From Naegleria gruberi (Eukaryota), in assembly GCA_000004985.1 (NCBI GenBank), contig GG738851.1: a DNA stretch of 64,000 nucleotides; one strand, given 5' to 3'. The notes beneath the pieces were generated by a model, which was given only the letters and a program-made list of their open reading frames with translations, ran no database searches and had not been told where the DNA came from. This document shows, piece after piece, positions 12,458 to 40,300 of this stretch; position 1 is the first letter of the stretch, and the number at the start of each line of letters is the position of its first letter. The position numbers were made by a program, and so were the translations under genes.

Positions 12458-14272
12458 ATGTTTAATTCATTACAATTCAAACCAAAGATTGAACACCATA
12501 AAAAAATGAGCAAGACACAATTTCGTGATTACTATGAAGTTCTCGGAGTGACGAAGGAAGCTACGAAGGAAGAAATTAGAAAAGCCTACAAGAAGCAAGC
12601 TTTAGTGTGGCATCCGGATCGTAACTTGGATAATCAAGAAGAAGCCACACATAAATTTAAAGAAATTCAAGATGCCTACGAAACACTCTTTGATGATAAC
12701 GAAAGAGCATGGTATGATGAGAATAAACACATCATCATGAAGGGAGGTATGGCAGCAGCTAAATCCGGAGCTTGTGATGATGATGTGGACAGAGAACCTG
12801 ATCAATTGAATTTGTGGAGTTATTTATCATCATCATGTTACACAACATTTAATAGCAATGATAAGGACAATTTCTTCAAGATTTATCAAACAGTTTTTGA
12901 TACCATTCTCAAGGAAGATGAAGAATATAAATCATCGAAAAAAGTTGGTGGAAGTTCAAGTAATAATGCTAATATTCAAAGTCCTTCATTTGGAGATGAA
13001 AATTCATCATTCGAACAGGTTAACAAATTCTATACCTATTGGTCAACTTATAGTACAAAGAGATCTTTTGCTTGGAAGGATAAGTATAGATTATCGGATG
13101 CAGAGAATAGATATATTAGAAGACAAATTGAGAAGGAAAATGAAATGGAAAGAAACAAAGCTAGAAAGGAATATAATGATTTGGTTAAGCATTTACTGAA
13201 GAAGGTTAAGGCAGACGATCCAAGAGTTAAAGCCGAAATGAAGAGAAGAAAAAAGATGCAAGATGAAATTGAAAAAAAGAAGGAAGAAGATAGACTTTTA
13301 CAAGAAAAGTTAAAGAAGGAATATTTGGCTGAAAAGGAAAGACTCAGACAACAATTGTTGAATGATGAATTTTCAGATGATGATGCTGATGTTCATGATG
13401 ATTTTTCAGATGAGGAAGAATATAATCGAGCTCAGGATGCTCTTGATGAGGTTGAGAATTTATATGATAATTTCTATGTTAGTGACACCAAGAAGAAGAA
13501 TAATAAGAATGGAAAGAAACAAGTTGTTGAAGAGGAGGATAACGAAGAGGAAGAACAACCAAGTGGAGAGCAGGAAAATGAAGAAAAACCTGCAGCAGCA
13601 ACTGCTGAAGAGGAAGAATTAGTTATTGAGGAAGAGGATAACAAGAAACCAACAAGTTCAGAACAAAAACCAGCAGAAAATGCAGAGGAAGCACAAAATG
13701 ATGACGATGACAACTTTTTCGGTGATAAGAAATCAAAGAAGGACAAAAAGAAGCAAAAGAAGCTCAAGAAGGGTATTGTCTATTTGGATCGTGAACAAAT
13801 TGAAATTCTCAAAGAATCTATCGAACAATCAAAACAACAGGAAAAGACTAAATCATCCTCAAAGAAAAAGTCAGGAAAGAAAAAGAAGGGAGACGATAGC
13901 GATGATGATTTTGTTCCAAAGTCAACCACTAAGAAGAATGCTGAACCAGCAAAGACAAACAAGGCAAACACTCCTTCCACTAAGCCAACTTCAAGCAAGT
14001 CAACGGAACCAAAAGCAAGCAGTAGCAATTCTGAAACAGTTCAACAAGAGGAGCAACAACCAACTGAAGAAACCACTGAACAAGATACAACAGAAAATGT
14101 TGCTGATGAAGTTGAAACGGGTGGAAAGAAGGATAAGAAGAAGCGTAGAGCCAAGGATAAAAAGGAAAAGAAGGACACTTCACTCAAGTGTAATGTTTGT
14201 GGTGAAGAATTTACCACCAGAAATTCTTTATTCCAACATATCAAAGATGAAGGCCATGCATTACATAAATAG
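12458..14272 (+). CDS. DnaJ (J-domain) protein with C-terminal C2H2 zinc finger, JJJ1/DNAJC21-like ribosome-biogenesis cochaperone; single exon (the second ATG at 12506, MSKTQFRDYYEVLGV, may be the real start)
   Basis: J domain: DYYEVLGVTKEATKEEIRKAYKKQALVWHPDRN…EATHKFKEIQDAYETL with the HPD motif. A long acidic/K-rich middle region follows. The C-terminal LKCNVCGEEFTTRNSLFQHIKDEGH is a C2H2 finger, as in JJJ1/DNAJC21. Confidence 0.85.
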   Translation: MFNSLQFKPKIEHHKKMSKTQFRDYYEVLGVTKEATKEEIRKAYKKQALVWHPDRNLDNQEEATHKFKEIQDAYETLFDDNERAWYDENKHIIMKGGMAAAKSGACDDDVDREPDQLNLWSYLSSSCYTTFNSNDKDNFFKIYQTVFDTILKEDEEYKSSKKVGGSSSNNANIQSPSFGDENSSFEQVNKFYTYWSTYSTKRSFAWKDKYRLSDAENRYIRRQIEKENEMERNKARKEYNDLVKHLLKKVKADDPRVKAEMKRRKKMQDEIEKKKEEDRLLQEKLKKEYLAEKERLRQQLLNDEFSDDDADVHDDFSDEEEYNRAQDALDEVENLYDNFYVSDTKKKNNKNGKKQVVEEEDNEEEEQPSGEQENEEKPAAATAEEEELVIEEEDNKKPTSSEQKPAENAEEAQNDDDDNFFGDKKSKKDKKKQKKLKKGIVYLDREQIEILKESIEQSKQQEKTKSSSKKKSGKKKKGDDSDDDFVPKSTTKKNAEPAKTNKANTPSTKPTSSKSTEPKASSSNSETVQQEEQQPTEETTEQDTTENVADEVETGGKKDKKKRRAKDKKEKKDTSLKCNVCGEEFTTRNSLFQHIKDEGHALHK

Positions 14273-14280
14273 TTCAAAAA

Positions 14281-15440
14281 TTACGATAATATGTCAATCC
14301 ATCCTTGAATTTTTGTCTCTGAAAAGAAGGTCTTATCCTTCCATAATTTCAGTACAATTCCAACCTTTTCTTTGATTTCCTTATTATTGATAGCTAAAGT
14401 TGCTTGCAAAATTCCAATCATTCGATCTTGAAGTAAATTTAAATAGTTGGCTGAATGTGAAGGATTGTGGAGTAAATCATTGAACACATAAATGCATGCA
14501 AGTTTCTGAATTGGATTACTGGTTTTTTTAGCTGCAGAGAATACTTGTTTTATGACCATGTCTATAATTGTCTCTGCATGATTTGAATAATCCAAACAAA
14601 ATCCCATCAAGTTCATTATTGAATTTCGTTTTGTATCAATATTTTGTAACAGTTTGATTAAATTATTGGACATTTCCTCGGTAAATTCTGTATTGACTGT
14701 ATTCATTTCGAGATAAAGTTACATATTTCTAACACTTTGAAAAACTTACAATTCTTTTCAATTTCACTATTTGTACACCATTGAATATTAATTGGTTCTC
14801 CTCCAAATCTTCTCTTTTGCATTGCATGCATGGCACACTCTGCATCATACCTTTTCATTTCCAAATAGAAAATATTTTCACTATCATGAGATCCAAAACA
14901 TTGATCAACACTTCCAAACCTCGAAAATTCATCCTCTATTTCCTCTAATGAAATTCTAACATTTGATATTTTCAAATAACCATTCTTTTTGGTCTTTTTA
15001 GGCATATTCTTATTGGAAATTTCATCAAGAAAATCATTCATTTTCCTCTTCTTTTCCATTGGTGTATTATTCCTTTCTGTAGAATTATTATTTACATTAT
15101 TATTTAAATTATTTAAATTATTAGTATTCAAATTGCCCATCATTAATTTTGGTTGATAAATCAATGATTGTTCCGAACTTGAATTCTTTTCATTCATCAG
15201 CGCCGATGATACTAGTACCTTCTCACCATCATTTGATGCTGCTGCTATTGTTATGCTTCCCATCTGTACACCACTCTTTTTAAACTTTGGTGCTGCACTC
15301 AAATATTTGGCAAGTGTTGAGGAGGATGAAGAGGTTCCGGTTTGTATTGCAACTTGTTCCGATTGTTCATTCAATTCATCAACATATTTTTTCAATACTG
15401 CCTCTGCATCTGCATGATCCGAGTTTGCTTTTGGAGGCAT
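14281..15440 (-). CDS. RNA-binding protein with RRM-like domain followed by a C-terminal CID/RPR (CTD-interacting) domain; 2 exons: complement(join(14281..14696,14750..15440))
   Basis: ATG 15440: MPPKANSDHADAEAVLKKYVDELNEQ…. The RRM-like segment is YLKISNVRISLEEIEDEFSRFGSVDQCF…IFYLEMKRYDAECAMHAMQKRRFGGEPINIQW. A 53-nt GTAAGT…ATACAG intron (14697..14749) fuses in frame (…EIEKN-F-NTEFTEEMSNNLIKLLQN…IYVFNDLLHNP…) to a CID/RPR domain. Alternative: without splicing, the two ORFs are separate genes whose stop and start overlap as ATGA (14703..14706). Confidence 0.7.
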
Positions 15441-15671
15441 TTTGTTTTTTAAATTGTATATTATTAAATAATTATTAAATATTGCTGATTTGGAAAAATT
15501 AGCTGATGATTCAATATCCATCACAGATGATGAAACAACATCAAATTGAAGTAAGAGCACAAGTAACAACTTCCAATTGTCAAATTTTCATTTCAAATAG
15601 AGTTGTGATATTTTCGGCAGCAACAAGTCTAGCTTTCACAAATGTTTCCTGTCAAACAATAATTAAAAAAA
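15441..15671. promoter_or_regulatory. Putative bidirectional promoter region between divergently oriented RRM-CID gene and Rho GTPase gene
   Basis: A 231-bp AT-rich spacer separates two head-to-head ATGs (15440 minus, 15672 plus). This is inferred from gene arrangement only; no motif is claimed. Confidence 0.35.
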
Positions 15672-16701: not shown

Positions 16702-19700
16702 TTATTTGAAAACGATTTGTTCAAATTGTTCAACACTGGTGAATTTCAATAATTGGGTAGTGTAGAGAGTTGCAATGCCTTCAAGCTTGGATAATGCTTC
16801 CTGATCAATAGATTCCAATTTCTTGGACAATTTGACAATCCATTCTTCAGTGCTGGCATGTTTGATTGATTCCTTAATTGGCAAGCCTGATGGAGACTTT
16901 AAATGGTTTTGGAATGCATCAATTAGAGCAACAAATATCAGGGCAGGTCTTTGTGCATTGAACTTTTCTTCTTCAGAACCACTTGTGGTATTCTTAATGG
17001 TTGATACAACTCTTTCAATAACAATTTTCTTATAATGGTTCCATTCTTCTAGAGTCATCAAATAGAGAGATAATATGGCATTGTAGCTAATATTTTCCAA
17101 TTCAAGTGTTGTCTCCATGTCCGTGCTCAAAAAGCTTGTCAATAATGTTTCTTGTGTTTCTCTGTTCTTGTTGAGAGTATCCAAAATGTAGATACCCATT
17201 TGAATCATGAAAGGAATCAATTTAACTTGGTGAATAGCACTACCACCTCCAGAATCCTTTGAGAATGATTCTTCTTTAGCAAACTTGTTTAACAATAACA
17301 TCAAGTCGTGAGAGAGGAGATCAAAAGACTCTCTTCCAGTATTCTTTACGAGTGACAAATCTGATACGTACTTTTGAACAGCATTGGAATAATTGCTTGC
17401 TGAAGTCTTTGGACCCTTGAATGGGAAAAGGGCGTTACATTTGGTGAAAGAATTTCTGATTTGAGCACCTTCCCATTCTGTCTTTGGTGGATTTCTATTC
17501 TGGTCAGCGGTAACAGCAAGAGTGTGACAAGATGAGTGAATAGTATTAAATTGTGTAACTGAGGAGATGGCACTAGAGTTATCTGAAAGATAACAGTGCT
17601 TGCAGAACATGTAGGTTCCCAAAACTTCTTCTGGCTTGAAGCTATTACCATCACCACAAACAGAACACAAAATACCCTTGTCTTCCTCTTCTGCCTCATC
17701 AAAATTAAATGTAATCTTTGGTTGTTTCAATTGCTTGAGAGTCTTTTCACGTTTAGACATGGCTTTCTTCTTCTTTTCCTCTTTAGTACTCTTTCTAATG
17801 TTACTGATGATAGACTTGGATTGAGAGGATCCTTCTGCAATACTATTGAGAAGTGATTCAGCATATGTTGCAATCATCTTTTCCTCGGTATTTTCTTCAA
17901 TCTTGTGTAGAATTCTAAAGAGTGGTTCACTGTTGAGCAGATTATGAGTTGGAGAGTGGAACGTAACCAATCCTTGCAGCAAGTTAAGTGCATAAGGAAG
18001 TGCTGGTAAAGACAGTGATGATTTCCAATCTTGAGATTCTCCAAAGTGATTCAAAACAAAGTCCAGAGCTAACTTGGTGATACCCCTTTGAAGTATTTGA
18101 GTTTTAAGATTATTACCTGCAAAATCGTTTGGAATGCTGGTAACTACATTCACAAATGAGTCGAGATAGAACTTTTGCTTGGTAGTATTTTCAAATGTTT
18201 CAAACTTGAGATATGGCTCAAAATATTGAATTAGGTAATTCATTGGCTCCTCCAAACCATAGGTTAAGAAAGGTAATATGGATTGGACTGCTCCAACAAT
18301 CTTGGTGCTGCAAACTGGCAATCGTTCCAAGAACATTTTCAATTGTTCCAATATTTCCTCATTACTAATCTTGTACTTGTCTGATTTTCCAATAATATTT
18401 GGTGACATTGGTGATAAGTCTGATGAATCAACGTTGAAAATGTCAGCAGAGATAGGGCTAAGAGGACTACTCAAAGGACTTGCTGGTGTTTCATGACTCA
18501 TCTTGGTAGCCTCCTTGATGAGAGGTCTTATTACGAGGAGTAATAGTTCTGCAATTTCTGCCAAATCACCATGTTGGAAAACATATTTGCACTTGGAAAG
18601 TAGGCATTCAACAGAATCTATCATTAAAAATCTTCTTCTATTCAACTTGACATTAGTACAGTATTGCATGAATTGCAGAAGATTCTTGGCCAAGCTCTTA
18701 TCAGAGCTAAAATCTGTAATTGATCTTAAATAAGAAACCATAACTTCAATACCTCCATACTTGGAAATAATTCCTGTAATCTTACATCTTTGGGCAATAT
18801 TGATAGAATCATCTTCACTTGGGAGAGTATCCACATTATCTTCTGATGCTTCATCAATACCTTGGAATCTGTAAATAACTTCCATAGGAGCATTTGGAGT
18901 GCTACCTTCCATATTTCTTGTGAGCCAGACCTTTTCGTAAACTCTTGTAACTGGTAAGTTGAGAGCAATAATCTTGTTATTCACCAAAAGTTCGAATGGA
19001 ATATCTGAATGAATGGAGAGTTCCTCACAAATCTTATCCTTTACATCTGACATTAAAGCTGGTCCTCCAGAACTATTCTTAAAGTCTACAGAATTCCATG
19101 TTTGTCTTGACAGTCTTCCTTGGAAGTAGAATTCCTGGCTTGCTGCACGAACAAGTTTCAACTTGAAAACAGGTTCCTCCTTGATTGGTTGAATAATATT
19201 ATTCAATTTTTCAAAAACAAATAAGGCTGTTCTGTTATCACTGTAAAGTTTGAGAGTATCAACACAAGCAGCAATAAACAATTTCTTGTCATCTTCTGTA
19301 TCTTGAAGTTTTTCAGTGAGTGACTTGAGCATTTCATAACTGTCAGTTGTTGCCTTTGTTTTTTGAACAACAAGAGATTTGAGTGAGAGGAAACTTCCTA
19401 AAACTGTGCTAATATGTTGTTCGTTTGTCTTGAATTCTGTCAATATTTCTGGAATTATTAAGAATTCAGAGAGGAGAGAAACCAAAAAGTATAGACTGGA
19501 GCCAGTAGAAAGATCTTGACTTTGATTTGTGTTTGAATTTTCAAGTTTGTGTATGTAGCTCACTTCCTTCTTGAGCAACTTGCAAACAAAGCTCAAGAAG
19601 CCCTTACTTGAAAGTAATGTCTTTCTCTCTTCCTGTTTGACCAATTCATTGAAAAGTTTAAAGAAGCATGAAGATACCTCACCTCGTTTCATAGCTTCAG

Positions 19701-22700
19701 ATAATAGAGCAGTAAGAGCTTGGAGAATACCAATTTGTTTGTGTGAGTTGTCTAAACAAAGGGATTGTAATATTTGCAATGTCAATTCTCTCACAGTATT
19801 TGAGGAAAGGTTAAGGAGAGTATTGGAAAGGAATTCTCTACCTAGAATATCAAAGTCATTTCTTGGCAACTTCTTTGGAATTTGATTATTCTTGAACATT
19901 TCGAAAGTCATTTCTCCTTCCTTAACTTGATGATATCCAAAGTGTAATCCTCTCATTGGTACTACTGTTTGATCGGTAGTGCTGTGTTCTGAGGATGGTT
20001 TTGAATTTCCGTAAGAAATAAACTTTTGAAGAATAATCAAGCATGGTTTGATCATTTCTTCACAAATAATAACGGAAGAGCTGAACTTGGAGGTCTCTAA
20101 TAAAACCTCAAACAATAATTGGATTCTATTGTTAAAGAATGGATCTTTTTCATCAAAAGTTCTTTTCAAAAGTTCAGTAAGTGCTACCAATTGAGAGGTT
20201 ACATCGTAGCCCTTTAAAGTCTTTCGGCAGTACTTGACAATTTGTTCTTTGAGTTTGGAATTAACTTTTTCGCTGACTTGCTCATTTCCAAAGGATAGAC
20301 AAGTTAGCAATTTAAATGATTTTTCTTTCAATCCTCCTCTACTAATATTCTTGAATAGTTCTTCAACTAAATTGTCATTGAAATTTACGTCGTTATTGTC
20401 TTTAACTGTTAAGAAAAAGTCCATAACATTGGAAACAAAGTTATTTGCACAACCATAACACTTATTTTCGAACTGATTAGAAGATTGTGAACTTGTGCTT
20501 TCATGGTAATACTTCTTGTCTGATTGTCTGTTTGCAGAAATGTATTCTCTCAAATGCTTTCTTGTTGTGAGCATTAGCTTTTGGCAATGTGACAGCCCAC
20601 CATGGAGAGTCTTTGTTTCATTGTTATAAACATCTTGGAGAGAGGAAATAACTTCGGAGAGCTTTTGTTCCCCATAATCTCCTGTCTTTAACTTTACAAG
20701 CAGAGATTTAATCTCAGAACTCTTGGTCTTCAAAGCAGAAAGTTTAGCTTCACTTGAATTGAGTTGGTTGTCAATGATCTGTAAGGACTTTTTGCAATCA
20801 TCTTCATTTCTAATCTTGTCTCCAATGAATACTTGTTTGGCACTCAAAGAGAAGGCAAAAGTGGCAAACTTGCAAGTACCACAAGTGGAACAAATGAATG
20901 CGTCCAAGTTATCATAATTAATTCCCCTACAATTACTGCATGAAAATACATTTTCACCACATGAAAGACAAAGTCCATACTTGTCATAGACAGCAATTCC
21001 ACAAGAATCACAAAAGAGTGCATCCATAGAAGCCAAATCAAAGTAAAAGCTTGAAAATTCAACCAATAGGTTGCAACATGTAACTGGAACACTAAAAGTT
21101 AATGTGGCAGATTGCTCTCCTTTTGCAACATTCATTGTACCAGCCCTTTGCCAAACTGTTGAGTTTTTAGGTAAATCATTGGCGTCCAGTGCTTGGTTAT
21201 TGTTGAAATAAATTTCCACTGTTCTAATCATTTTGGATCTCTTAAAATCACTTATGTCAATTGACATTGATTCTATTGTGTAAGAATTAGAAAGCTTGTA
21301 GTAGTGAGATGAATGGGATTGTTTTTGACCTTGGATAATATCTTGTAAATTGAGTTCCTTGAAGTCAAGTTCAGGATCACTACAGACCAAACAAGGAGTT
21401 GTTTCCAAGTAATAACCAGAAGGTTCAACAGAAATATATTGTTGAATGGTATCATAAATGTAAGAATTAGGATGGTTACAAATCAATCCATTTTGTGATT
21501 GTAAACACTTGGCCAATTCATCAGCAATTAATTGCTTCTTTTCTGGATAGTGGTCATAGATTGGAATCAATAGGTTGTTCAAAAATTCTTTACCCTTCTT
21601 ACCGTAGTATGGCAAGGATTGAACTCTCTTTACGATGATGTTAAAAAGCATCTCCTTGTACTTGACACTGAATTGTACAAGTTTTGACATTAGGTGGGCA
21701 GCTTCTGCTCTGATTGTGTTTGTTTCTCCATTGAAAATAAAATCTACAAACTTATTTAACGTCTTTGCAGAGTGAGTAGTGATCAGAGAAGAAAGTTTTT
21801 GTAGAGTAGAGTCATTGTCTGATACAAAAGACATGTTCAGTAAAAGGAGAGGAATAGTAACGCTCTCATCCAATAAGAATGAAAACTCGAACAAGGCAGG
21901 CAAAACATTTTCATGTTCCATGCAGAAGTTGATCCAATTTTCTGGTCTTGCCTTGACACTATCCATAATATCGTTGACTTTAACTACTAATCTTCTTGCC
22001 TTTTCTGGTGACCAAACAGAGACAGGATCGGAACCATTGACAAAGTCTGACAGCTTGGACTTGAATAATTTTTCATCCATGAGTTTGTTGTAGAATTGCT
22101 CACTTCCACAAATCAAAAGAAGATTGTATTTTCCAATTGATCTGATGAATGGAGTTTCGTCTAGAGCAATGTTTGAGAAAAAGTTACTCCATTTTTGTTT
22201 GTCTGCTTCAATTACTGGTATTACATTAATAACATGTTTGAATAGTCTCAATACAACTTGTAAAACTATCTTGGGATAGGATGCAAATACATCAGACTTA
22301 TTTTCTTCCAGGTATGCCAATGAGAATATTGGAGAGAATAATCTGGTAGGAATTTCTTTTTGGCTTCTCAGTAAGCCTCCCATGATATCCTCAAAGTCAG
22401 CTTGATTTCCTGGAACAAACAATGCTAACATATCATCGCAAACAGACACCATGGATGTATGCAATTCAGGAATTGACTCTGTCAATAAATTACAAATTTC
22501 TTTTCTAAGTGAAGGAACAAACTTGGAATCAGAGGAGGTAGAAAGAAGAGAGGCAAGCATGGCCATGATGAGTGTTCTCTTCTCGCTTGCTGGGCTTTTC
22601 ATGGCGAGATTATTCAACAAGTCTGTAAAATTAAATGCTAATGAGCGAATAAATGTTGAAATACTTGTTTCATACTCATCTTCTTTCAAATTCGAACAGT

Positions 22701-25700
22701 ATTTAAGAATTGATACAGAAACAAGTTGAAGAATATTTAGCAATGAAAGAGAGTCGTGTGTCTTTTCTGTAAGGTCCACCAAATAGGTAGTGAAAATTTG
22801 TACTTTGTCATTTGGAACATTGCTGAAAGTCATCATGCTTGCCAAAGAGGTAGAGCAGCTTGTACGCACTGCCTCATCATCGTCCAATAGGAATTTAGAA
22901 ATTTGATCTAAAGATCCTGATTCCTTGTAAAATTCAATAAAGAGAATTGAGCTATACAGTTTGATTAAATTGTCATGATTCAAGTTTCCATCGAATTTGT
23001 TTTTTTCTATCAGTGAATAGAGTGTTTTCTTAAAGTCAACTTCGGACTTGATTTGGTCAAAAACTTGCTCATAATCAAATTCTATTGCCTCCAAATATTT
23101 AGAAATTACAATATCAATCTTGAAGGAGTCCATCTCTTGTAATTTCTTCTTTGAAATATATTTTAACTCAACTGCTGTTTTGGAAGTAACGAAAGATTTT
23201 GGTTCATCACAAAGAGAAATCATAGTAGAAATCAAATAGTCTTTAACCTCTTCAAACTTTGGTATCATTAGACATTCTGCCATAATGGAGAAAATATTAG
23301 TCTTGGATAATTTGGTTTCAATACCATTCTTTTGGAAGTAGTCAGAAATAGTTCTGTTCAAGAAGTATATCATAGATATTTCTTCTGAAGAGAAGGATAG
23401 CTTTTCTTCATGGTGCATGCTTGTTTCCTCCACAATCTTTGGCTCTAACTTCTTTTTGCTATAATTAAATCTAAATGTAGATGAAAAAGTACCAAATATT
23501 TTGATGGAATCTATTGCAGGTTCGTTTGACCCACCATGTACTGTTGAAAATTCAATCTCCAACTCTGACAAATCTAAAGCCTCTTGGTTTGTGAGAATAA
23601 TAGTGTACCACTTTTCAGTATCAACTTCAGTCTCTATTGTATGACTATTCATAAGGATGGAATATGGAATAGAGTTTTTGTTAGATTTTCCTACTAATAC
23701 TTGGATGTGAGTAAAGACATAATCATCTGGCTTTTTAACTTTGAATTTTAAATTGCTACCTTGCACGAAGAGAGTGTTATTTTCATCTAATGAATCTTTA
23801 AAAGAATCCAATCCAATATCATTGACCTTTTCCCCTTCAAAAGTGCATTTAGAGGTAATATCCTCACTTGTTTCTGTATCAATTGGTAAACTGTCCAAGT
23901 CTTTTGGTTTTTCAGTAACCACTGGCTTTGAAAGCTTTTGTTTAACCTTCTTTACAGACTTGGCACCGTGTCTCTTTCTCAATTCTTTGAATATTCTACT
24001 CTTTGGTGGTAGGGAAAGACAAGGAACGATCTCTTTGGTAACAGAATACTTAATCAACTCGCCACTGCTAAATAAGCCAATAATTGAGGAGTTTTTGCTG
24101 AATGGTGGTATACTCGTTATTCCTTGAATAGTGTGGGAATCTGGAGTATCTAAAATTTGGTATTCAACCTTATCCTTCAAAAAGTTAAATAGAACCAATT
24201 TGTAATTGCTGGTCATTACTGCAACAACACCACACATATCAATAGCTTCCACCACATGAGTAAAGAATCCAAGAGATTTAAAGCTAGAATCTTTGGAGAG
24301 TTCCAAGCAAGACAAAATTTTACCAGACAAATGATCAAGTTGCAAGGCGACAGATGTACCATCCGCATAACTTACAAATAACATATGAGCAAGTTCTGAA
24401 TAGAACACATATTTTCCTTCTGAGGAGCCATTGTGTGTTGTAATTGTGATACTATCAGTGAATGTAGCTTCACCACCACTATTGAAATAGCTTTGATAGT
24501 AAAGTTGACCTTTCTTTGTAAGAGCAAAACATGTCTTTAAATCCTTCATTCCATTTGGATCAGAGGCAAATACACTCGATGCAATCAAATCATCCTGAGC
24601 AGCAAAGTTAAATGTAGGACAGAAAGTGTCTGAAGACAGGTCATACACCTTAACAAATTGGTTTGTTGTAACAGAAAGTAAGCACTGTTCTCCGGGCAAC
24701 CATTGAATATCAATAATATAAGTCTCGGTAGGCATATCTTCACATGCCAAATAGAGAGGGATTTGTTGGATAACGTTGCATTCAGAGTCTAAAACTAGTA
24801 CGTGACATTCATAAATACCTGCAACTGCTAAAAAGTTGTCATTTTCTGGATTGAACTTGATGTGGACAACTTTGAAAGGAACTGAATGAGTATTCATAAT
24901 AACAGCATCACTTCTGGTATTGTCCTTTTTCATATTATCTGCAAAATTTGTCGTATTTTTCATGAAGGAAATGTCACTTTGTTCTGATAGGGCCATAGTG
25001 TTCGACAAATTTGAAGCAAGTAAATGTCTTGGCATTGGTTTACTTCTAAAAATGTTGACCTCTTGTCTTCTCTCGAACGTAACATTAGCAGTGAAGGAAG
25101 ATGCTGCAAAAGAGGCAACTCTTTCAGCCAAAACTTTTTGTGACTCGGAAACTGAAAAATCTTCTTGTAGACTCCAAGAAAAATTCTTGCTCTCTGATTC
25201 TGTGGTTTGCTTTTCATACTCTTGTTTCAATTCGGATAGAATGGAGATGAGTTTTTCAATTAGTGAGTCACTAACACAAAGAGTATTGCCATTGGATGAT
25301 TCAATAGGCGTAGCTTCTGAATCTGGTTTGTCTGATACATCCTCCAGGTCTACATTAAATCCAGAAGTTTTAATCAAACTATGACTTGCTTTGTAGGAAT
25401 TATTCTCCATATTTTCCTCAATCTCTGTATTTGATTGAATCACTGGACCCTCAAAGGTGAAAACCTTCTCACTATTGGTTCTTTCCTTGAGATACTTCAA
25501 AATTTGACGATTGGATTCACCACGTTTAGAATCTAAATCTCTTTCCAAGTACTTGCATAAAAATGTACAAATAGACTCAATGATATGAACGTCCTTCTTT
25601 GCAGTTGGTGAGTCCAAAATCTCCACAAAACTATCAAGCAACTTGTCACCTCTGCTGATAGAATTAAATAATGGGAATAAATCTTGGGAAAGCTCGTCAA

Positions 25701-28700
25701 AGTTCTTACTATTAGAATATGCACATTCCTGTAAAACTTTCATCAATGAAGAAACAATGGCATCTACAAGTTGTTTTGAATTTTCCTTTCCTGATAAGCA
25801 TTTTATCAATTGCTCTATTTGTTTCCTTGTATCTTTAACCAAAACCTTACTTTCTATAAAAGTATTAAATCCTTCTGTTTCAGATAATACTTTAGAAATT
25901 TCCTTGTTTTCGGGATCAACCTTAGTTAAAATTGATTCAATAAAAGAGAGCAATAGGTTAAATATTTCAGCCGAATTTTCTGTTTGCATTAGTAAGCTCA
26001 TCAAAATAGAAGAGTTAAACTTTAGGTTCTCACAATATTTTGGACTTGTTGACTGACCGACAAGTAATACTTGAATGCTTTGTAATTTCTTTTCATCAGT
26101 AGAAAATATTTGATCTTCCAAATGTTCGAAAACTTCAGCTAAAACCTTCTTTGCAACTTCAACTTTCTTTTCTACCAACAAGGTTTTCTTGACTGATTCA
26201 ACAATTCTAAGAAGAGTAAAATTCTTGAAAATATGTAACTCCTGAACAAAACCATCTTTGAAAATATTGAAAAGAATTGATTCTACCAATAAGGCTGATC
26301 TAAATGTATAGTGTTCTCTAATATTGAATAAACTTTCGACTTTTTCTGAATTAAATTGAGACAAGTCGAGCATGTTTTGTTCAGTTGCCTTATTGATTGT
26401 GAAAGAAATTAATTCAATAACTGATTTGATAGAATGATACAAAGCAAATGCTGTAGAGTTCTCCCTTGAAAGATGTACACTCTTTACATTATGTATCAGA
26501 ATAGAATTGAAACTTTCTGCCAAGGACAACTCGGAGACAATTTTCTTGAGAGATTGTAATTTTCCATCATACCACTCACCAACGTTTAGAGTTGAAATCT
26601 TGGCCAGATTAGGTGAAGTGAAAGAGCTGATCAATGATACAATATCCTCCTTTGCAAGAGATGATTGGCAAATATCCAAGCATACATCTACTTCTTCAGT
26701 AGAAAGTTGATTGATTTGAAGTTCCTTGGAGAAAACCAAATACAAATCATTCAACAAATTCTTGAGCAATGAAAAGGAGAAATCTAAGGCTGTTTCGAAA
26801 AGCTTTTTTGATGGACTTTTCTCTATTTGCTTTTTAAGAAGCATACATGTTTTGTCAGAATAGAGAGACAAAAATATTGGCTTGACATTTTCAAAGCTTT
26901 TCTCTTTTAACACTCTTTCAACAACAGAATCATTAGATGCAGTCTTATCGTGGTAGAAAATCTCTGCTAAAATGTTGCTAAAGTTGTTCTTGTTAAATTT
27001 CAAATTTTCAATCTTCATCAAGGTTTTAATTAACCTGAGTGAGACATCTGTAAAGTAATCACATTCGTGGTTAGTATTTTTGTCTTGATAACTTGTAAAG
27101 GCTTCAAAAAGGACACATATCAACTTTTCAGCCATGTTATCCTTTGACAATATTTGCGTAACATGTGAAGAAAGCTGATTACTAGAGTAGTTCAACTCAA
27201 AAATACCATTACCCACATCCTTAGAGTCTAATTGTTGGAGTAATAAATTTTTAGATACTGTAATGTTCTCTCCCTTGATAAAACATGTGAGTTGTTGCAG
27301 TGCCGAAGATGGAATCTTTTCAAAGTTAAAGCACAAGTATTCAAACAATACCAAGATATTAGAAAGAAGTGTTTTCCTACTATCTTTCAAAAAGTCTTCC
27401 TTCAACACTTGTGTCAATAGTGAAGAAAATATTATCTTTCTTGTTTCAATAGAGAAGGTCTCAAAACTAAAAGCTAAGAATAGGCAAACCTCAACACCAG
27501 TTTGTGAAATTGAAACAGTTTCCAAAGATTTGATAAATGTTGTCCATATTGATTCATAAATTTTTCTATCAGATGAGTTGTGCAATACTAATTTCATAAA
27601 AATTCTTAACACTTGTGGCTTCATCTCAATAATACTCATGTTTAAAGATGCGATATCACAATTTGATGATGCCAAAATATCTAAAATCTTGTTAAACACC
27701 CTTTGAGTATCGTGATCACCAATATTTTCTCCAATTTTGAAAAGTTTGCTCAAGTTCTCAATGGAGCTGGAAACAAAACTATCCTTAAACTCCTTATTGT
27801 TTTCTTGGAGGCCATTTTTGAGTAAAACAAGGAAATTAGTGATTAAATCATTAGTGGATGGAGTTCCCAACTCGAGATCGACAGCCTTCTCCACAATGGT
27901 AATCACCTTGTTAATATTGGCGTGAGAGAACAATTCAGCATAAACTATAATTTCCTGCAATAATGATTTCTTAAACGTAAAAGCCTCCTCAACTTCTTTA
28001 ATCTTATTAAGAGGGAAATATTTTTCTATCATTGGGCTAACTATTAGTGGAAGATTGTAAGAATCTGGTTTGATTTCATTAAAAGTGGAGTGTGACGAAT
28101 AGATATTAGCCATTAGGTACAAGTAATTGGAGTAGATTGCCATGGACTTTTGAACGCCATCCTCCTCATTAAAAATGCAGAAAATACCGTTTAAAAAGTG
28201 GGCAAGTGCAAGTTTGGAATCTTTTGTGTTGGTTTTTTTAAGAATGAGAGTGGCAATAGATCTCAATATATCTGGACTATAGTTTCCAACAGATTGTTTT
28301 GTAATGATTTCTTTTACCTTTTCAATCAAAAATTCAGTTTCTATTTTACAGACATTCACATTTGGCTTTGAAAGAAGATTGATAATTTCGAATGTGACTC
28401 CACTCACTTCACCCTTTTGTTCATAATTAGAGCTCAAAATCTTGTTCAGTATGTAGCATAAATTTTCTCCAACAAGTAAATTATTGATGAGGTATGACCT
28501 AGATTGTTTAACAATCTTATCAAAAGAAAGAGTAGAATTTGAGAATTTTCCAATTACTGGTGTGATTGTAAAATTAGAATCCACTGATTGCTCGTTGGAG
28601 ATGATTAATAATTGTTGAATAATATCAGTATTTGGTATAGTTTCAGAATTTTCCTCTTTAGGTTTGTTGTCATTAAGATTAAAAGGAAAGGCAACCAACT

Positions 28701-29524
28701 TTTCTGGAATTACTTTCTCCAATCTATTCTCTGCATCAGTTGTCTTTCTTCCAGTCAATATTACATTCAAAATTTTACAAGCGTATTGAATTGTGTGAAT
28801 TACATTTTCCGATAATGGTTTGTCAGCATATTCGTTTAAAACATATGTACAATATCTTGCCAATACAAGAAGTGTGTATTTAGTGCTGAAAAAGCAAGCA
28901 CTATTTTTTTGAATAACTGGAATAACATGTTTAGTTTCGAAAAAAGCTCACAAACTTACCCTTTTCAATAAACTTTTTGGAATAGAGTTGTCTTACGAAT
29001 GTGTTCAAAACTTGGACCATTACAAAATGTTGGGTTGAAGAAAAACATTTCATTCTCTGTAAAAACTTGCACAATAGTTTCATGATTGATGGAAAATCAT
29101 TGGCATTACTTTCAGAAAGGTACCTTTCCGATGAAACCACTTGCAAAACGAAAGTTTTCAAAAACTTTGTTGTTTCGTACAATTTATCTCATATTTAAAA
29201 CATACCTCTGTTCCTGTTTCTGATTGTAGGACAGTCTTGTCTACAACTACAGATTCTTCAGCCTTTTTAATAGTTAGAAAATTATAGACCAATGAATAAA
29301 ATTGAACTTACAAATAATAGACCCATTCCAAATACATCTGTCTCTTCATCTGTAGCATCAACAACATTTCCCAATTGAATATATTGATCGCTTGTGTCTT
29401 GATTTGAGAGTTGATCAAGTATTTTACTCCTCTCAAAGGATGAATCAATAAAATTATTAAAGAATTCATCCTCCTCTTCAATGTTAGTTTCTTCCGAAGA
29501 GTGATGATTTATTTTCACACTCAT
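16702..29524 (-). CDS. UBR4: UBR4 / p600 / BIG / Pushover-type giant E3 ubiquitin ligase orthologue (about 4229 aa); 4 exons: complement(join(16702..28916,28960..29164,29206..29262,29312..29524))
   Basis: The 12.2-kb main exon aligns with human UBR4 at the beta-propeller-like region (…NDNFLAVAGIYECHVLVLD…IIDIQWLPGEQCLLSVTTNQFVKVYDL vs …DCHVLTFSS…[24 protein letters not shown]). It aligns at the Cys-rich C-terminal E3 module too (CLVCSDPELDF…CDSCGIAVYDKYGLCLSCGENVFSCSNCRGINYDNLDAFICSTCGTCKFA vs CLVCNNPEVPF…CPRCSASV…[36 protein letters not shown]). The same holds for CYGCANNFV and CSVCGDGNSFKPEEVLGTYMFCK…HSSCH…KCNALFPFKGP vs [23 protein letters not shown]…DCHL…KCNGLLPVWGP. The 5' exons start at ATG 29524 (MSVKINHHSSEE…GMGLLF|AEESVVVDKTVLQSETGTE|FLKTF…KKFIEK|…). 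Introns: 29263..29311 (GTAAGT), 29165..29205 (GTATGT). The third is 28917..28959 under GTAAGT…CCAG, or 28901..28948 under GTTTGT…AAATAG. Internal antisense ORFs in the track are spurious. Confidence 0.85.
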
Positions 29525-29801
29525 ATCAGTGATCTGATGATGATTTAATGATGGTGATATTGGTGATGAAACTTTTCGAAGGCTTGTTATTAAACAAATC
29601 CAAATTGAATAAATACAATCAAATAGACGTGCTAAGAAAGGAATAATTGGTAACACTTCTAATGTTTTTCCGTCTTGAAATTTTCTATTGATTGTGTAAA
29701 TAAATTGTGTGTAGTATTTCCAAACTCTATTGCAATTTTGAGTTTGATCAAAGTTCCAATAGAAAAGACAAAAAGGCTTTGAATCTTTTTTTAGCTTGAT
29801 T

Positions 29802-30131
29802 TTATTTTTGTTCTTGTTCTTCCTCCAAGCATGATGAAGCAGAAGGAATGATGATTAAATTTTTCATTTGGAGGAACAATGAATTTGATGCCGTGCGATT
29901 GCTTTGGACCATTACAAAATGTTGTCTTGTGTGGGATGGAGGTAAAATAATTTCGCCTCTATTGACCAACAATAAATTATATTTAATTGATATGAACTTA
30001 TTAAAATTTAAAATACAAAAAAAAAACGTTTCTTCAATATAACAATAATTATAATGGTTCTCTGATTGATAATTGGTGGAGTTGAATTTTTGATAGATTG
30101 GATTAGAGGAGTTGATAATAGTCAAAAACAA
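29802..30131 (-). other. Upstream ORF carrying an exact 21-bp copy of a UBR4 5'-exon segment (possible duplicated/alternative 5' exon or decaying duplicate)
   Basis: caacattttgtaatggtccaa occurs at 28993..29013 (UBR4 exon 3, …TQHFVMVQVLN…) and again at 29904..29924 (this ORF, …TRQHFVMVQSNR…). The ORF has a TTG pseudo-start, no obvious donor and ends in a stop. Confidence 0.3.
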
Positions 30132-30801
30132 GGATGTGCTCTCACTCGTTCCTCATCATCAAAAGGATCATCTTCATCTTCTTATAAATATGATTGTAGT
30201 TCTGGCGTTTGTAAAATTGTAAGATCGCCAAGTACTGCTGAAAAAAGGCAAGCCATAGAGTCTGATGATGAATCCAATTAGAGGAATGTTTAATTGGAAT
30301 ATTGATTGGAATTAATCATTACTATGAGTGTTGTTATTTTGGTGTGGATGACGTTCAAGGGAGCTGAAATTTACATTCCTTACCAAATTGTTTCTGATTC
30401 GCTTGTAAGCAACAGTAAATGATTATTGAGTGAGGCAGTAAACTTGAACTGAAAGTATCAATATCAACATGGATAGTGAGATAATTCTCTTTCAATAAAA
30501 TACCCTTGAAAATGAATGTATTTATTTAGTTGAGATTTAAGTCTAGTTTGTTGCCTTGCATGATAAAACAACCAGTTATGGAAGCACCTACACCTTGTTA
30601 AAATCAATGAAAGATCCAAATATTACACATTTGATGGATTAAATTCGAGGAACCATTACCAAGGATAACATATTTGCAATTATAGATAATAATTACACTT
30701 TAAAGGTTTTTCTGACAAGAATTTATCGAAAAATGTAAAAGAGAAAGATTTAGTATGCAAGGGTGGTTAGTAATTTTATTCCACGAAAGATATTGAATTT
30801 G

Positions 30802-33123
30802 TTAAATCTGTTCTGTATCCAAATTTTCAACTAATTCTTCAATCTTTCTCAAATTATCCCACAACTCCAATGAGGAAATTCTTTCTTTTGGATTCCATTT
30901 AAGACAGGAAAGAATTGCATTCTTGATTGGCTCAATAAGTGCATACTCTTCCTCATTATCAGCTACAGAAATCATTTTGCTAATTTCAAATTCCAATTCA
31001 TCTACAAAATCATTGAATTTCTCCTTTTGTTTCTTCTTGTTAGATAACTTGCCTCCAAAATTGACACCTCCAGGCATGATTCTCTGGTAGAATGTGTGGT
31101 CAATCTTTGTATCAAAAGTTAACAGCTGGTAGGCAATTACACCTAATGAAAAGACATCGGTTTTTCGTAACAATTCCATCTCACTAATTTTCTCACTATC
31201 ACTTCTATCCTCACTTGGAGAAATAGGGTCCACACTATCGCTGTTCATTTGGAGATAGAGCTCTGGAGCCATGTGAGGAATAGAACCACACAATTTGGTA
31301 TTCTTCATGCCATCTATTGCATTACTCATACCCTTCTCAGAATTGATACGTATCAGGAAGGAAAAATCAGCCAATTTCAATGTTTGATAATCATCTGCAA
31401 TGAAAATATTTTGAGGTTTAATGTCACGATGACAGTAAACGAAGGAATTTTCTTCTTTCGATGGTTCTTTTTGTTCATTTTCGATAGGTTCAGAGGAGAG
31501 TGATTTTCTATTGTGTCTCGATCTGAATTCTGGGTGATGCAAGAGTGCCAACGTCTCTGCCAACTGTTTCATGTACAATACAAATGTTGAAATTTGAATC
31601 TTCTTGCCCTTTCTTGCTTTGGATTCCAAAAATTTTTGTAAATCACCTTGTGAAAAGAGTGGCATCTCTAAACAAATGGTCATTTCATCATTTTCATTCT
31701 CCTTACTCGATCTATTTACACTTTCAAGGAAAATGCTATTGTGGTGTACAATGTATGGCCACTCTGATAATTCACCCTCGTCCAAATATTGAACAAGTTC
31801 AATTTCATAGAGAATTTCTTGAGCACTTTGTAAATTATCAATTTTAACTTTTTTGAGTGCAACCATTTCATTCCTATTCTGTTCTGGTCCAAGATTTTTG
31901 AGTGCAGAAAATACAATTCCATATGATCCCTCTCCCAGTGGTTGAATCAATTCATAGTCCTTATTTGGATTCTGTTCCAATTCTTGGAATAATTCTTGTA
32001 ATAATTTACTATTCGTCATGAATTGATCGAATTTAAATCCATTCCACTCGCCTATTTTAACATCTGTTGCACAAACTTCCACATTGGTTCCATCAACAAC
32101 AGCCTGATTAAATCGAATACTCTTACCACTACTTAGAGTGGTAGAATTTGAAGTTGGAGCTCCACTTGCAAAAAATTCATCACCCAAATCCAAACCACAG
32201 TTTTGTGCTGTAATTTCCAAAAAGATGAATCCATGAGGAACACCCTCCAATTTCAAATAGAATTTCTGTGTTTGATTTTTTAACAATTGAGAGAGTGGCA
32301 CCGAGACACTTCCCATAAAATCATTCGATTGAAACAAGTCAAAATCCCAAACATTTACAATCAGCTCATCCTTAATGGCTCCCACAAATAGCTCATCACT
32401 TCCGTTCTGTTCAACATTCCTCACACTGAAAAAGAAACTCTCATCCCACATTGGATTGAGTGTTTTTTTGAGACATTTCGATTTCTTTGTTTCCTCCAAA
32501 TATCCCTTGAGGGCTGCTTGATGATCATGATCTTCCTGTTCCAAATATCGGTGGTGAAATACACAAAATGGATCGGATCTGCCATTCCTATCACAGGGAA
32601 TTAAATCTTCACAAGATTTTAACGTAACAATTATATATGGATGAACATTTGCATTATTGGACAATAATGTTGATAGTGAAGAAGATTTTCCTTCCAAATT
32701 TTGATTACTATAAACATCTCTACTCGATAAACGGCCAGATGGTGGTGCCTTTTTAAATCTGCCACCTGTCAAATAACTTGTACTTCCAGTGATGGTCTTT
32801 CTATTATTTATAAGAATGACAGCATTTCTTCTGGGAGAAATTGGCGAGTTACTGCCAGAATTTGCTGACCCAACAGAAGAATTGTTATTTGCTGACGAAG
32901 GGGATGGAGAATTATTGGATGATGGTGATAAATTATTGGCAGCTGGTGAATAATTCGAAAGTCTTCTCTTTTCGAAATGGTGATGAGTATTAGAAAGAGA
33001 TGGAGGTGAATGATTTGAATCCAGATAGGAATCTGTAGGTGGTGGAGAACCAAATACTGGTCCAGCTGAACCTGATCGGGATCGACTTTTGGGAGCAAAA
33101 ATTGATTTGACCTGTTGAAACAT
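30802..33123 (-). CDS. C2-domain-containing serine/threonine protein kinase (single exon, 773 aa)
   Basis: ATG 33123. The N-terminus is Ser/Asn-rich. The C2-like domain is …IIVTLKSCEDLIPCDRNGRSDPFCVF…DELIVNVWDFDLFQSNDFMGSVSVPLSQL. The kinase domain has LGEGSYGIVFSA (Gly loop), VALKKV (VAIK), YCHRDIKPQNIFI (HRD), LKLADFSF (DFG variant), GSIPHMAPE (APE) and DVFSLGV. Confidence 0.8.
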   Translation of the reverse strand: MFQQVKSIFAPKSRSRSGSAGPVFGSPPPTDSYLDSNHSPPSLSNTHHHFEKRRLSNYSPAANNLSPSSNNSPSPSSANNNSSVGSANSGSNSPISPRRNAVILINNRKTITGSTSYLTGGRFKKAPPSGRLSSRDVYSNQNLEGKSSSLSTLLSNNANVHPYIIVTLKSCEDLIPCDRNGRSDPFCVFHHRYLEQEDHDHQAALKGYLEETKKSKCLKKTLNPMWDESFFFSVRNVEQNGSDELFVGAIKDELIVNVWDFDLFQSNDFMGSVSVPLSQLLKNQTQKFYLKLEGVPHGFIFLEITAQNCGLDLGDEFFASGAPTSNSTTLSSGKSIRFNQAVVDGTNVEVCATDVKIGEWNGFKFDQFMTNSKLLQELFQELEQNPNKDYELIQPLGEGSYGIVFSALKNLGPEQNRNEMVALKKVKIDNLQSAQEILYEIELVQYLDEGELSEWPYIVHHNSIFLESVNRSSKENENDEMTICLEMPLFSQGDLQKFLESKARKGKKIQISTFVLYMKQLAETLALLHHPEFRSRHNRKSLSSEPIENEQKEPSKEENSFVYCHRDIKPQNIFIADDYQTLKLADFSFLIRINSEKGMSNAIDGMKNTKLCGSIPHMAPELYLQMNSDSVDPISPSEDRSDSEKISEMELLRKTDVFSLGVIAYQLLTFDTKIDHTFYQRIMPGGVNFGGKLSNKKKQKEKFNDFVDELEFEISKMISVADNEEEYALIEPIKNAILSCLKWNPKERISSLELWDNLRKIEELVENLDTEQI

Positions 33124-37365: not shown

Positions 37366-40300
37366 ATGATGTCAAATAACAAGCAAGGAGGAGTTTTAAA
37401 TATCATCTTTTCAATTATTGTATTGTTTGTATTGTGTGGAGTTTTGGCAATTTCTGCTTGCTATGCTATTACACCAGCTGTAGCAGAGCAAATAGTGAAA
37501 AACCAACAACAACAACAACTAAACAACAATAATGAAGATAAGTCTCCCCAAGAATTTACATATATAAAGAACCTGATACATTCGCAAGGTATGTAAAGCA
37601 TTACGAAGAATTCATCTAACCGTACCATTAAAATGTATACACACAATATAATGTTAACAAATCACGTTCTCTAACAAACAACATTTATTTGGAAATTTAA
37701 AGTAGCCGATAGAAATGAATTTTCTAATATTTTAATTGTAAGTATGAGAAATACTAAAGAGTAAATTTTGTTCTAACACACTTGCTTTTTAATAGAATGA
37801 TCAGGACTTTATTGGAAATCAAAGAAGGACGTACCTTCAACAATTTAGAGACAAACTTGTAAATACGCACAAAGGAAAGCTCCATTTTGATATAAAACTT
37901 GATGATGAGGAAGAAGATGACGAAGAGGAAGAAGAAAGTGGAGCTAGTCAGTCTTCCAATCGTCTAAACTATCAACTCTATAATGTTGATGAGGCAGATA
38001 TAATTGACCTCGAACAACAAAAACATGCCCATACTGATGAAGATAATGGAGATGATACAACACAGCTTGATTCCGTATCACTGGTAAGGAGAAATAATAT
38101 TGATGGAACTTCTGGAAGTTCCAGTGGTGATGGCTCAAGCACAACATCAAACCAATCATCAAAGGGCAATGCTGGGATGCCAACTTCAAATACTAATAAC
38201 GCTGAGATTACAAATACAAGAGTCAAGTTACTATTTGATCCACCATCATTAGACTTTGAAGAAAGGTATGTGTTATTATTGAAAAATTTATTTCAACTTT
38301 ATTTATAGACCACTTTGCAATCCTATTGCAAAAACATTTACAATCACTAAAGAGGATGGAGAAGAAGAAGAAGCTCTTCAAATAACATCAGTATCTACAG
38401 AGTCTCTTTTATTCCATCCATCTATTAGTAAGAAAGAAAATAACAAGATAACAATTAATGTTATTTTTCTCCCTAGAATTTTGAAAAGATCTGAAGGAAT
38501 TATTACTATTAATACGAACTTTGGAGTTTTTTCTTTTAAGGCATTTGGTGGAGGTATTGAAAATGCCTATAACATCAAACCAATTCTTGGACACAAATTA
38601 CCTGTTGGTGCTGATTATAGAAAACCTATTTTTATGCATAATCCACATCAAAATGAATCATTATTAATCAAGGAAATTTACACTAGTGAAGACTTTTTAT
38701 TATTGAGTTTACCAGATCAAAATTCAAATGACAAAACTTATAATAAGAAGAATCCACTTTTATCATTATGGAAAATTGAACCTCACCAAACAAAGTCTAT
38801 TATTTTATTGAATTTCCATGCTAATCAACCTAAAAAACATACAGGATTTGTTCATGTTAATACTAATCGTGGACAATTTATTATTCCTGTTGAATTTATT
38901 GTTTCAAAGAGTGGAGTACATCGTATTGTTGATGAAATTGATTTTGGAACTTTCATCTCTGCCAATGAGAAGAGAACTCGTGACATTGTACTCCTTAACT
39001 CATCTCCAAATCCAGTTTTAGTATCTGAAGCATCTATTGCACAAACTGATGCTCAATTAAAGTTAGAATTTACAAAGAATACCCTTCTTCAAGAAGGATC
39101 AATTTCAAGTGTTGCAAAGGTTACTTATACATCTCAGATACAAGGAGAATTTACTGGAAAAATTATTTTCAAGACCAATGATACTACATCAAAGGAAAAT
39201 GCTGGTATTATTGAAGTTCCATACCGTTCTCGTATTATTCATGGAACTTTAGATTATAGAATGAATAGTACAGCTTTTTATTGTGGTGATGGTAAAGAAA
39301 AGGTTAATGAAATGGTATTAATGAATGGATTTGATGTTCCAATCAAGTTCACTTCTGCTGATGTGTTTGATAAGAGATTTACTATTGAAGATTTTACTAC
39401 TGGTTCTATTTTAGAAAAGAATAGCAAGAAGAGAGTACTTTCTATTCGGTTTAATCCAAGTGACAGTTTTTTGATTCACAAGACTAATCTTATCCTCCAT
39501 ACAAATATTACCAGATTGTACATTCCACTTTATAGCTATCATGGCAATTTAGATCATATTCCAATTAATGCTGAGAAGAATATTCTCAACATTGAAGCTG
39601 CCAATGATGGTATTAATATGGGTATTCTTGGTTTGAGCAGTAGAAAGATTCACTACTTTACTGTTTCCAATATGAATCCTGTACCAATCAAAATATTTGA
39701 CTGGAAGGTAACTGGTATGACAAACAAAAAATCAAGCATTTCCATTTCATATGTCAAGATTTACCAACCTGAGGATGATTTGGGCTCTTTAACTCTTATC
39801 AAACCAACAAAATTAAGTGAAAGTATTAATAGCAAGCATGCTGATGGAAACAAGGATTCTTTCATTTTTGCCATTCTTCCAAACCAAAAGATAATTATGA
39901 GATTGGATATTTACACTCCAACTTCAGATGAAGAACAAAATGGTTTTATTGAGTTTGTGACTCAATACAAATCCTTGACCATTCCTCTCAAGTTTATTTG
40001 TATGGAAGGTAGTTTATCCATTACTAATCAATTACCTTTTGATGTTACTTTCCCTGGTAAAATTCAAAAGAAAAATATCTATGCAACTAATACTTTTGGA
40101 AGAACTATTACCATCTCTGAAATCAAGTCATCTGATGAAAGATTCATTCCAGTCATTACTCATAAAACAATTGAGGCAAACCAAAAGATGAACATTGGTT
40201 ATGTAACCTTGGATGCTTCCAAAGTTCCAAAAGAGAAGAATTACATGATGGATGATGGAAAATCTGCAACTAGTACCTCTAGTTACAATAAGAAGTCCTC

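Follow-up and report, generated by a model that had tools for sequence, protein, structure and literature searches.

Can a member of the UBR4/BIG family of giant ubiquitin ligases, which serve in quality control, dispense with the very domain on which its classification rests? UBR4 has been named and classified as an N-recognin for its UBR box, and structural and cell-biological work of 2024–2025 found no client that requires this box. The question is posed by a 64-kb stretch of DNA from the amoeba Naegleria gruberi NEG-M, here termed the window, to which all nucleotide positions refer. At 16702..29524 its minus strand encodes the UBR4/BIG orthologue NAEGRDRAFT_57108 (XP_002681263.1), which an earlier note, made from the letters of this DNA alone, had described as apparently lacking the box. 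The explanation that we favor, with considerable confidence, is that Naegleria has an intact UBR4/BIG protein whose UBR box was lost in the Naegleria-Willaertia lineage, the other modules of the enzyme being kept.

The gene contains a single uninterrupted open reading frame (ORF) of 4053 codons (16702..28863, minus strand), by whose residues the protein is numbered below unless otherwise stated. The Pfam profile of the UBR4 C-terminal module, PF13764, matches over positions 14–806 of 809 (E=1.3e-176, 589.6 bits), and phmmer searches against all solved structures recovered Arabidopsis BIG (6.9e-232), human UBR4 (6.9e-228) and C. elegans UBR4 (1e-78). The propeller/DOC1 region likewise finds BIG (5.8e-35) and human UBR4 (9e-21), and the match to the PF24079 'UBR4' domain is weak (23.7 bits vs a cut-off of 27). 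An AlphaFold2 (AF2) model of residues 961–1960, computed from 13 aligned homologues, has a mean predicted local distance difference test score (pLDDT) of 68.7. When this model was compared with the PDB by means of Foldseek, the best match was human UBR4 (9hxw_A, E=3e-46; also 9d9z), followed by the propeller-focused map 9qwz and the worm UBR4 9qx5. The orthology claimed in the earlier note is thus upheld.

Downstream of the missing box, the Naegleria protein has its modules in the order seen in human UBR4 (p600), known from the UBR4-KCMF1-calmodulin or SIFI complex (PDB: 9nwd, 9hxw, 9d9z, 8b5w), namely propeller, DOC1/BS1, armadillo scaffold, DOC2/BS2 with two zinc fingers, UBL and hemiRING-UZI. 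The hemiRING ligands are identical in the two proteins: CSVC...HSSC aligns column for column with human C4838, C4841, H4887 and C4890, the mutation of which abolishes activity (PMC10873205). N4884 is also retained, and E4843 is replaced by D. The UBL motif is conserved, and a Cys cluster at residues 2586–2690, within DOC2/BS2, is the sole such cluster outside the C-terminus. All modules for catalysis and for the known recognition of clients other than through N-degrons are therefore present and conserved. The Naegleria enzyme is probably active, given that it retains the four zinc ligands of the hemiRING as well as the propeller, DOC1, the UBL and DOC2 together with its zinc fingers. Judged by the other features of the family, i.e. 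the PF13764 module, the C2HC ligands of the hemiRING, the propeller with DOC1/BS1 and the DOC2/BS2 domain with its two zinc fingers, its descent as a UBR4/BIG orthologue is clear despite the missing box. The protein had been estimated to be about 950 aa shorter than metazoan UBR4, and the difference from the human protein is indeed 954 aa (4229 vs 5183), chiefly in the N-terminal scaffold and in acidic insertions.

The human UBR box spans residues 1660–1729 and binds three zinc ions through 9 Cys and 2 His (PMC10687169). Residue 1323 of the Naegleria ORF, used here as an anchor, aligns to human residue 1945, and the box is therefore to be expected ~215–285 aa upstream of the segment that the earlier note had taken as its reference, rather than ~100 residues upstream as stated there. 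The site given in the note was thus off by ~150 aa in the direction of the propeller; the absence of the box, however, holds after this correction. The note had also pointed to a Cys-free stretch upstream of its segment. There is indeed no Cys between residues 1196 and 1353; however, the part that it quoted (residues 1229–1303) overlaps the start of the propeller, from residue 1237, where no homologue carries a box. In box-bearing homologues the box starts 232–431 aa upstream of the anchor, and in a MAFFT alignment its columns fall opposite residues ~1086–1141 of the Naegleria ORF.

Several searches failed to uncover a box at this site or elsewhere. 1) Pfam zf-UBR (PF02207), the profile that the earlier note had proposed, does not match the ORF at E<=1, and the three minus-strand frames of 28780-30830 contain no Pfam family whatever at E<=10. 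2) A hidden Markov model (HMM) of 77 positions, trained on 50 boxes of the UBR4 type, was applied without filters (--max) to all six frames of the window; no domain scored above 0.6 bits, and the annotated protein gave no match. 3) Within residues 1–1499 of the full gene model, any 75-aa segment has at most 4 Cys, and at most 5 residues when Cys and His are counted together. 4) An hhalign comparison of three heterolobosean segments with a UBR-box profile gave a probability of 0.15%, with one aligned column. The same tools succeeded on positive controls: Pfam detected zf-UBR in the UBR4 proteins of Soliformovum (30.8 bits) and Tritrichomonas (27.6 bits), and the HMM recovered decayed boxes of diplonemids (E 1e-11 to 1e-13), on which it had not been trained. 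At the expected site the AF2 model has low-confidence helices, then disorder, and then one long helix before the propeller, and identity to the Willaertia magna protein is 23–32%. A vestigial box was considered, as MAFFT pairs 'ICTFLCKYL' with 'CSVCAKVCH'. We rejected it as an alignment attractor in view of the hhalign result, the loss of one of these Cys in W. magna and the helix that AF2 predicts there.

The other known N-degron reader of this system, the ZZ finger, lies inside UBR4 in plants, algae and SAR (stramenopiles, alveolates and Rhizaria), in KCMF1 in animals, and in both in some amoebozoans. Pfam (PF00569) detected no ZZ finger in the proteins of N. gruberi, Naegleria lovaniensis and W. 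magna, but found one in Soliformovum UBR4 (aa 2516–2547). The Naegleria UBR4 is thus without a known N-degron reader in cis, having neither UBR box nor ZZ. The contrast is evident with Arabidopsis BIG (AtUBR4, PDB: 9qt9), the best overall sequence match to the Naegleria protein, which combines a UBR box with an internal ZZ finger for the binding of Arg N-degrons (PMC7618180). As judged from its sequence, the Naegleria protein lacks the defining feature of the wider family of UBR-box N-recognins (UBR1–UBR7), and it should not be labeled a UBR-box protein or an N-recognin.

What such a protein might do can be gauged from studies on the animal complexes. Human UBR4, KCMF1 and calmodulin form a ring-shaped dimer that extends K48 chains on pre-ubiquitinated clients, with the ZZ-DZB domains of KCMF1 serving as the N-degron receptor; furthermore, human UBR4 without its UBR or BS2 domains co-purifies with unchanged substrates (PMC7618180). 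Degradation of HRI/DELE1 does not need the UBR box, and it is DOC2 that recognizes HRI and presequences (PMC12286842). In the place of the box (~70 aa, elsewhere 230–430 aa before the propeller), the Naegleria protein has a poorly conserved stretch of predicted helical scaffold and then a disordered acidic linker. By analogy with the human, worm and plant complexes, it would still build a ring-shaped E4/E3 arena. A Rad6-type E2 would dock on the hemiRING, K48 chains would be extended, and clients would be chosen via DOC2 and, if Naegleria has one, via a KCMF1/DI19-type cofactor, with UBR4 itself reading no N-degrons. The proposal of the earlier note that the scaffold and E3 functions are separable from the box thus agrees both with the retained catalytic and substrate modules and with the deletion data from human cells (PMC7618180, PMC12286842). 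The separability is itself not new, as it had already been demonstrated experimentally in human cells for several tested functions.

A related possibility, which we hold to be less likely than not, is that N-degron reading has moved in trans, either to a stand-alone UBR-box protein that arose by gene fission or to a KCMF1-type ZZ cofactor docked on DOC1, such that N-recognin activity would persist at the level of the whole complex. In its favor, the main N-degron receptor of animals is already supplied in trans by the ZZ-DZB domains of KCMF1, where plants have an internal ZZ, and DOC1, the docking partner of the N-terminal part of human KCMF1, is retained in Naegleria. However, no UBR or ZZ finger is encoded in the window, and a search of one literature library returned no paper pairing UBR4, KCMF1 or N-degron with Naegleria or Heterolobosea, and hence none naming KCMF1 together with Naegleria. 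Relocation of this kind is compatible with loss of the box from UBR4 rather than opposed to it.

Loss of the box presupposes that an ancestor possessed it, and this was investigated by searching residues 1001–2200 against 1.84 billion representative proteins, which gave 207 homologues, of which 51 long ones were scored for the box. A Cys/His-rich box occurs at the homologous position in 46 of these (42 canonical, 4 decayed), with the consensus CT(F/Y)T..G..F..QHWY.C.TC......G.C..CA..CH.GH...Y......F.CDCG. The box-bearing homologues identified by name come from Amoebozoa (Soliformovum, Luapelamoeba, Pelomyxa, Mastigamoeba), the glaucophyte Cyanophora, Ichthyosporea (Chromosphaera, Creolimax), the diatom Nitzschia and the metamonad Tritrichomonas foetus, and plant-type and animal-type boxes were also recovered. 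The decayed boxes are those of diplonemids (Diplonema ambulator, EP01059_P026762; Rhynchopus humris, EP00754_P032210; and two ENA contigs). They occupy the same position, but 3–5 of the 12 conserved Cys/His columns are substituted (HWYLCYSTY, GYD, YCDTKG), and Pfam zf-UBR is blind to them. Like the Naegleria protein, the diplonemid versions are from Discoba and have neither a Pfam-detected box nor a ZZ; unlike it, they retain a box that the family-specific HMM still recognizes (E ~1e-12), where nothing is left in Naegleria. The decay suggests a relaxed constraint on the UBR box across Discoba.

The orthologues of N. lovaniensis (XP_044549134.1) and W. magna (KAL9643652.1) also lack any zf-UBR, ZZ or HMM match. 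They are 41–45% identical to the N. gruberi protein and colinear with it, and their Pfam content is likewise confined to PF13764 and PF24079; the W. magna protein, at 4342 aa, exceeds that of N. gruberi by 113 aa. The N. lovaniensis model (3127 aa) is missing ~1100 N-terminal residues relative to N. gruberi and W. magna, probably owing to a truncated annotation, but still spans 358 aa upstream of the anchor. Besides the heteroloboseans, the only long box-less homologues were sequences of Colocasia (taro) and Ephemera (mayfly), which we did not accept as true losses, since both gene models are incomplete and the box is otherwise present in their lineages.

Diplonemids and Heterolobosea both belong to Discoba and, as the former have a box, the ancestor of Discoba must have had one. 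Under any root outside Heterolobosea, this distribution makes the absence in the Naegleria-Willaertia lineage a secondary, lineage-specific loss. Hence, although separability is upheld, the further suggestion of the earlier note that the scaffold might predate N-degron recognition runs counter to the canonical box in 42 of the 51 long homologues and to the decayed box of diplonemids. A heterolobosean protein representing a primitive UBR4 scaffold, older than an insertion of the box in other eukaryotes, is accordingly very improbable. Certain rooting hypotheses do place Discoba near the eukaryote root, and no vestige of the box is seen in three heterolobosean proteins. Yet the decayed box of diplonemids at the homologous position effectively refutes this view, and canonical boxes are present in the metamonad Tritrichomonas and in every other identified lineage sampled. 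Ancestral absence would require a root inside Discoba, between Heterolobosea and the rest, or several independent insertions at the same site.

It is equally hard to credit that loss of the box is a symptom of a decaying gene, be it a pseudogene or a scaffold-only protein without ligase activity. The N-terminal 1400 aa are poorly conserved (23–38% identity to W. magna), as might befit such a gene; but identity rises to 80% in the first propeller blades and to 60–74% in most of the C-terminal third, and conservation extends to N4884, the UBL motif, the zinc fingers of DOC2 and all four zinc ligands of the hemiRING. Moreover, an open frame of 4053 codons could not last without selection in DNA with a G+C content of 33%, a value that holds at about this level throughout the window. 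PF19423 (E3_UBR4_N) is not detected by Pfam in the N-terminal region of Naegleria or W. magna, though it is found in Soliformovum; the region is long, predicted to be helical and colinear among heteroloboseans. With its unambiguous homology, NAEGRDRAFT_57108 is an intact, conserved and single-copy-looking UBR4/BIG orthologue.

The limits of the gene itself were established by re-modeling, guided by homology and by GT..AG sites read from the sequence. This gave 4 exons, a coding sequence of 12690 nt and a product of 4229 aa, with introns of 49, 41 and 43 nt (29263-29311, 29165-29205, 28917-28959). The three short 5' exons extend the ORF to an ATG at 29524, a start that the earlier note had also modeled; this is supported by tblastn, in which W. 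magna KAL9643652 aa 1–175 maps to 29524..28961, beginning exactly at that ATG. The exons contribute 176 aa, in fair agreement with the ~160 estimated previously. A single BLASTP high-scoring segment pair joins aa 42–4223 of N. gruberi to aa 53–4332 of W. magna at 44% identity (~4180 aa). The upstream neighbor on the same strand, a C2-kinase gene, ends at 30802, which leaves no space for additional coding sequence on the 5' side. An overlooked exon or a gene start still further upstream, either of which might have supplied the box, is excluded by the colinearity with W. magna over residues 42–4223 and by the alignment of the W. magna N-terminus at 29524. As both N. lovaniensis and W. magna are also box-less, the absence is no artefact of assembly or annotation. 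A box overlooked through a wrong gene model, an unrecognized exon or an assembly error is thus extremely improbable: the NCBI model is wrong at its 5' end and that of N. lovaniensis is truncated, but the box would have to sit in the middle of a 12.2-kb uninterrupted ORF in a window where six-frame searches were negative, with the N-terminus fixed by W. magna homology, the next gene ending at 30802, and the same architecture recurring in two other independently sequenced genomes.

The NCBI model XP_002681263.1 (4029 aa) begins at an internal Met near 29030 and omits residues 1–44 of the ORF, but is otherwise identical to the ORF from residue 45. The gene is labeled in the public database as 'E3 ubiquitin ligase UBR4 C-terminal domain-containing protein'.

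Certain points weigh against our favored explanation of lineage-specific loss from a functional enzyme. The heterolobosean sample comprises three species, one of them represented by the N-terminally truncated N. lovaniensis model, and a second, box-bearing UBR4 paralogue could conceivably exist elsewhere in the Naegleria genome. The function that we ascribe to Naegleria UBR4 derives from conservation alone. Furthermore, the UBR box contributes to the structure of human SIFI as a component of its KCMF1-N/DOC1/UBR subcomplex, packing with DOC1 and the KCMF1 N-terminus (PMC12286842), and its loss may hence have altered the docking of cofactors. Finally, the interval with the lid and the calmodulin-interacting helix is shorter in Naegleria, at ~57 aa (~19840-20010, minus strand; residues 2952–3008), than in human UBR4 (~100 aa; aa 4026–4124) or BIG (~124 aa), and the short form is common to all three heteroloboseans. 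Calmodulin binding by heterolobosean UBR4 is accordingly doubtful. An outright loss of the calmodulin helix was considered and dropped, its sole evidence being the shorter interval.

Remodeling of this arena in particular lineages has a published precedent in C. elegans UBR4 (PDB: 9qx1), which has a different N-terminal scaffold and no calmodulin, the site being occupied by KCMF1 insertions. Unlike the Naegleria protein, however, the worm version keeps the UBR box (PDB molecule name 'UBR-type domain-containing protein'). A lineage of free-living amoebae that has maintained a 4200-aa enzyme under selection without the box would provide independent evolutionary evidence that the box is dispensable. 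Naegleria UBR4 could thus serve as a natural deletion mutant with which to ask what the box does, and might reveal whether and how the N-terminal module of KCMF1 docks on DOC1 in its absence. The practical gain is smaller, consisting of a corrected gene model and a caution against annotation as a UBR-box N-recognin, and no new kind of biology is involved. A bolder conjecture, which we regard as improbable, is that within Discoba the reading of N-degrons by the UBR4 complex has been dismantled step by step, in that the diplonemid box would probably have lost zinc sites and the Naegleria-Willaertia lineage would have lost the box and be devoid of a ZZ in cis. If Naegleria were also without a KCMF1-type ZZ cofactor, its complex would be a natural 'reader-less' arena. 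Such an arena would select its clients via DOC2 and pre-attached ubiquitin only, and the ancestral and indispensable task of the family would then be the extension of chains on orphan or mislocalized proteins, not the recognition of N-degrons. The coordinates of the exons and domains, together with those of the neighboring genes, are collected in Table 1.

Table 1. Exons and domains of the Naegleria gruberi UBR4/BIG gene and neighboring genes, in window coordinates
Feature	Position	Strand	Remarks
Exon 1	29312..29524	-	71 codons; ATG at 29524; begins MSVKINHHSSEE; GTAAGT donor
Exon 2	29206..29262	-	19 codons, AEESVVVDKTVLQSETGTE; AG and GTATGT on flanks; resembles W. magna '...KAETGTE'
Exon 3	28960..29164	-	205 nt, FLKTFVLQVV...KKFIEK; resembles W. 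magna 'FLKLFTADVL...NKFNEK'; flanked by GT..AG introns (41 and 43 nt)
Exon 4	16702..28916	-	Holds the 4053-codon ORF; stop codon 16702-16704
Expected UBR-box interval, ORF aa ~890-1160 (full-model aa 1066-1336)	25384..26196	-	5 Cys and 2 His only; helical scaffold, then start of acidic linker
Predicted disordered Ser/Glu/Asp-rich acidic linker, ORF aa 1129-1198	25270..25479	-	~70 residues; AF2 pLDDT 27-45, no regular secondary structure
Beta-propeller (WD40-like), ORF aa ~1237-1610	24034..25155	-	phmmer; AF2 pLDDT 80-93; Foldseek; includes the Cys-free stretch of the earlier note
DOC1/BS1 beta-sandwich, ORF aa ~1674-1793	23485..23844	-	Aligned to human aa ~2330-2430 and BIG aa ~2205-2297; AF2 pLDDT 80-90
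DOC2/BS2 beta-sandwich with two zinc fingers, ORF aa 2447-2704	20752..21525	-	phmmer: human UBR4 aa 3490-3746, E=4e-57; BIG, E=3.6e-60
C-terminal UBR4 module PF13764 (UBL region, hemiRING, UZI subdomain), ORF aa 3268-4049	16717..19062	-	Pfam; aligned to human aa 4653-5109
HemiRING C2HC zinc site: CSVC (ORF aa 3733-3736), HSSC (ORF aa 3776-3779)	17524..17667	-	Alignment to human
C2-domain protein kinase	30802-33123	-	
TMEM131-like Ig-repeat protein	38481-43109	+	
RGS-SAM protein	54469-56181	-	
PAS-adenylate/guanylate cyclase	61230-63158	+	

Two of the neighboring ORFs are exact matches to XP_002681264.1 (the C2-domain protein kinase) and XP_002681265.1. The kinase, TMEM131-like, RGS-SAM and cyclase genes are ordinary and not related to ubiquitin. 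On the other side of the UBR4 gene, a 604-aa ORF on the plus strand (12458-14272) combines DnaJ and zuotin-homology domains with a C2H2 finger at the C-terminus, which is the architecture of the Jjj1/DNAJC21 ribosome-biogenesis co-chaperones. Around this ORF, over 10–14 kb, the plus strand shows a strong purine skew (GC skew 0.17, AT skew 0.28–0.30). Lastly, the minus strand of 14281-15569 carries two abutting ORFs in different frames with a 4-nt overlap, 14703..15569 (288 aa, no clear domain) and 14281..14706 (141 aa, with a CID domain at E=1.8e-17), which may represent a single gene interrupted by a frameshift or by a short intron.

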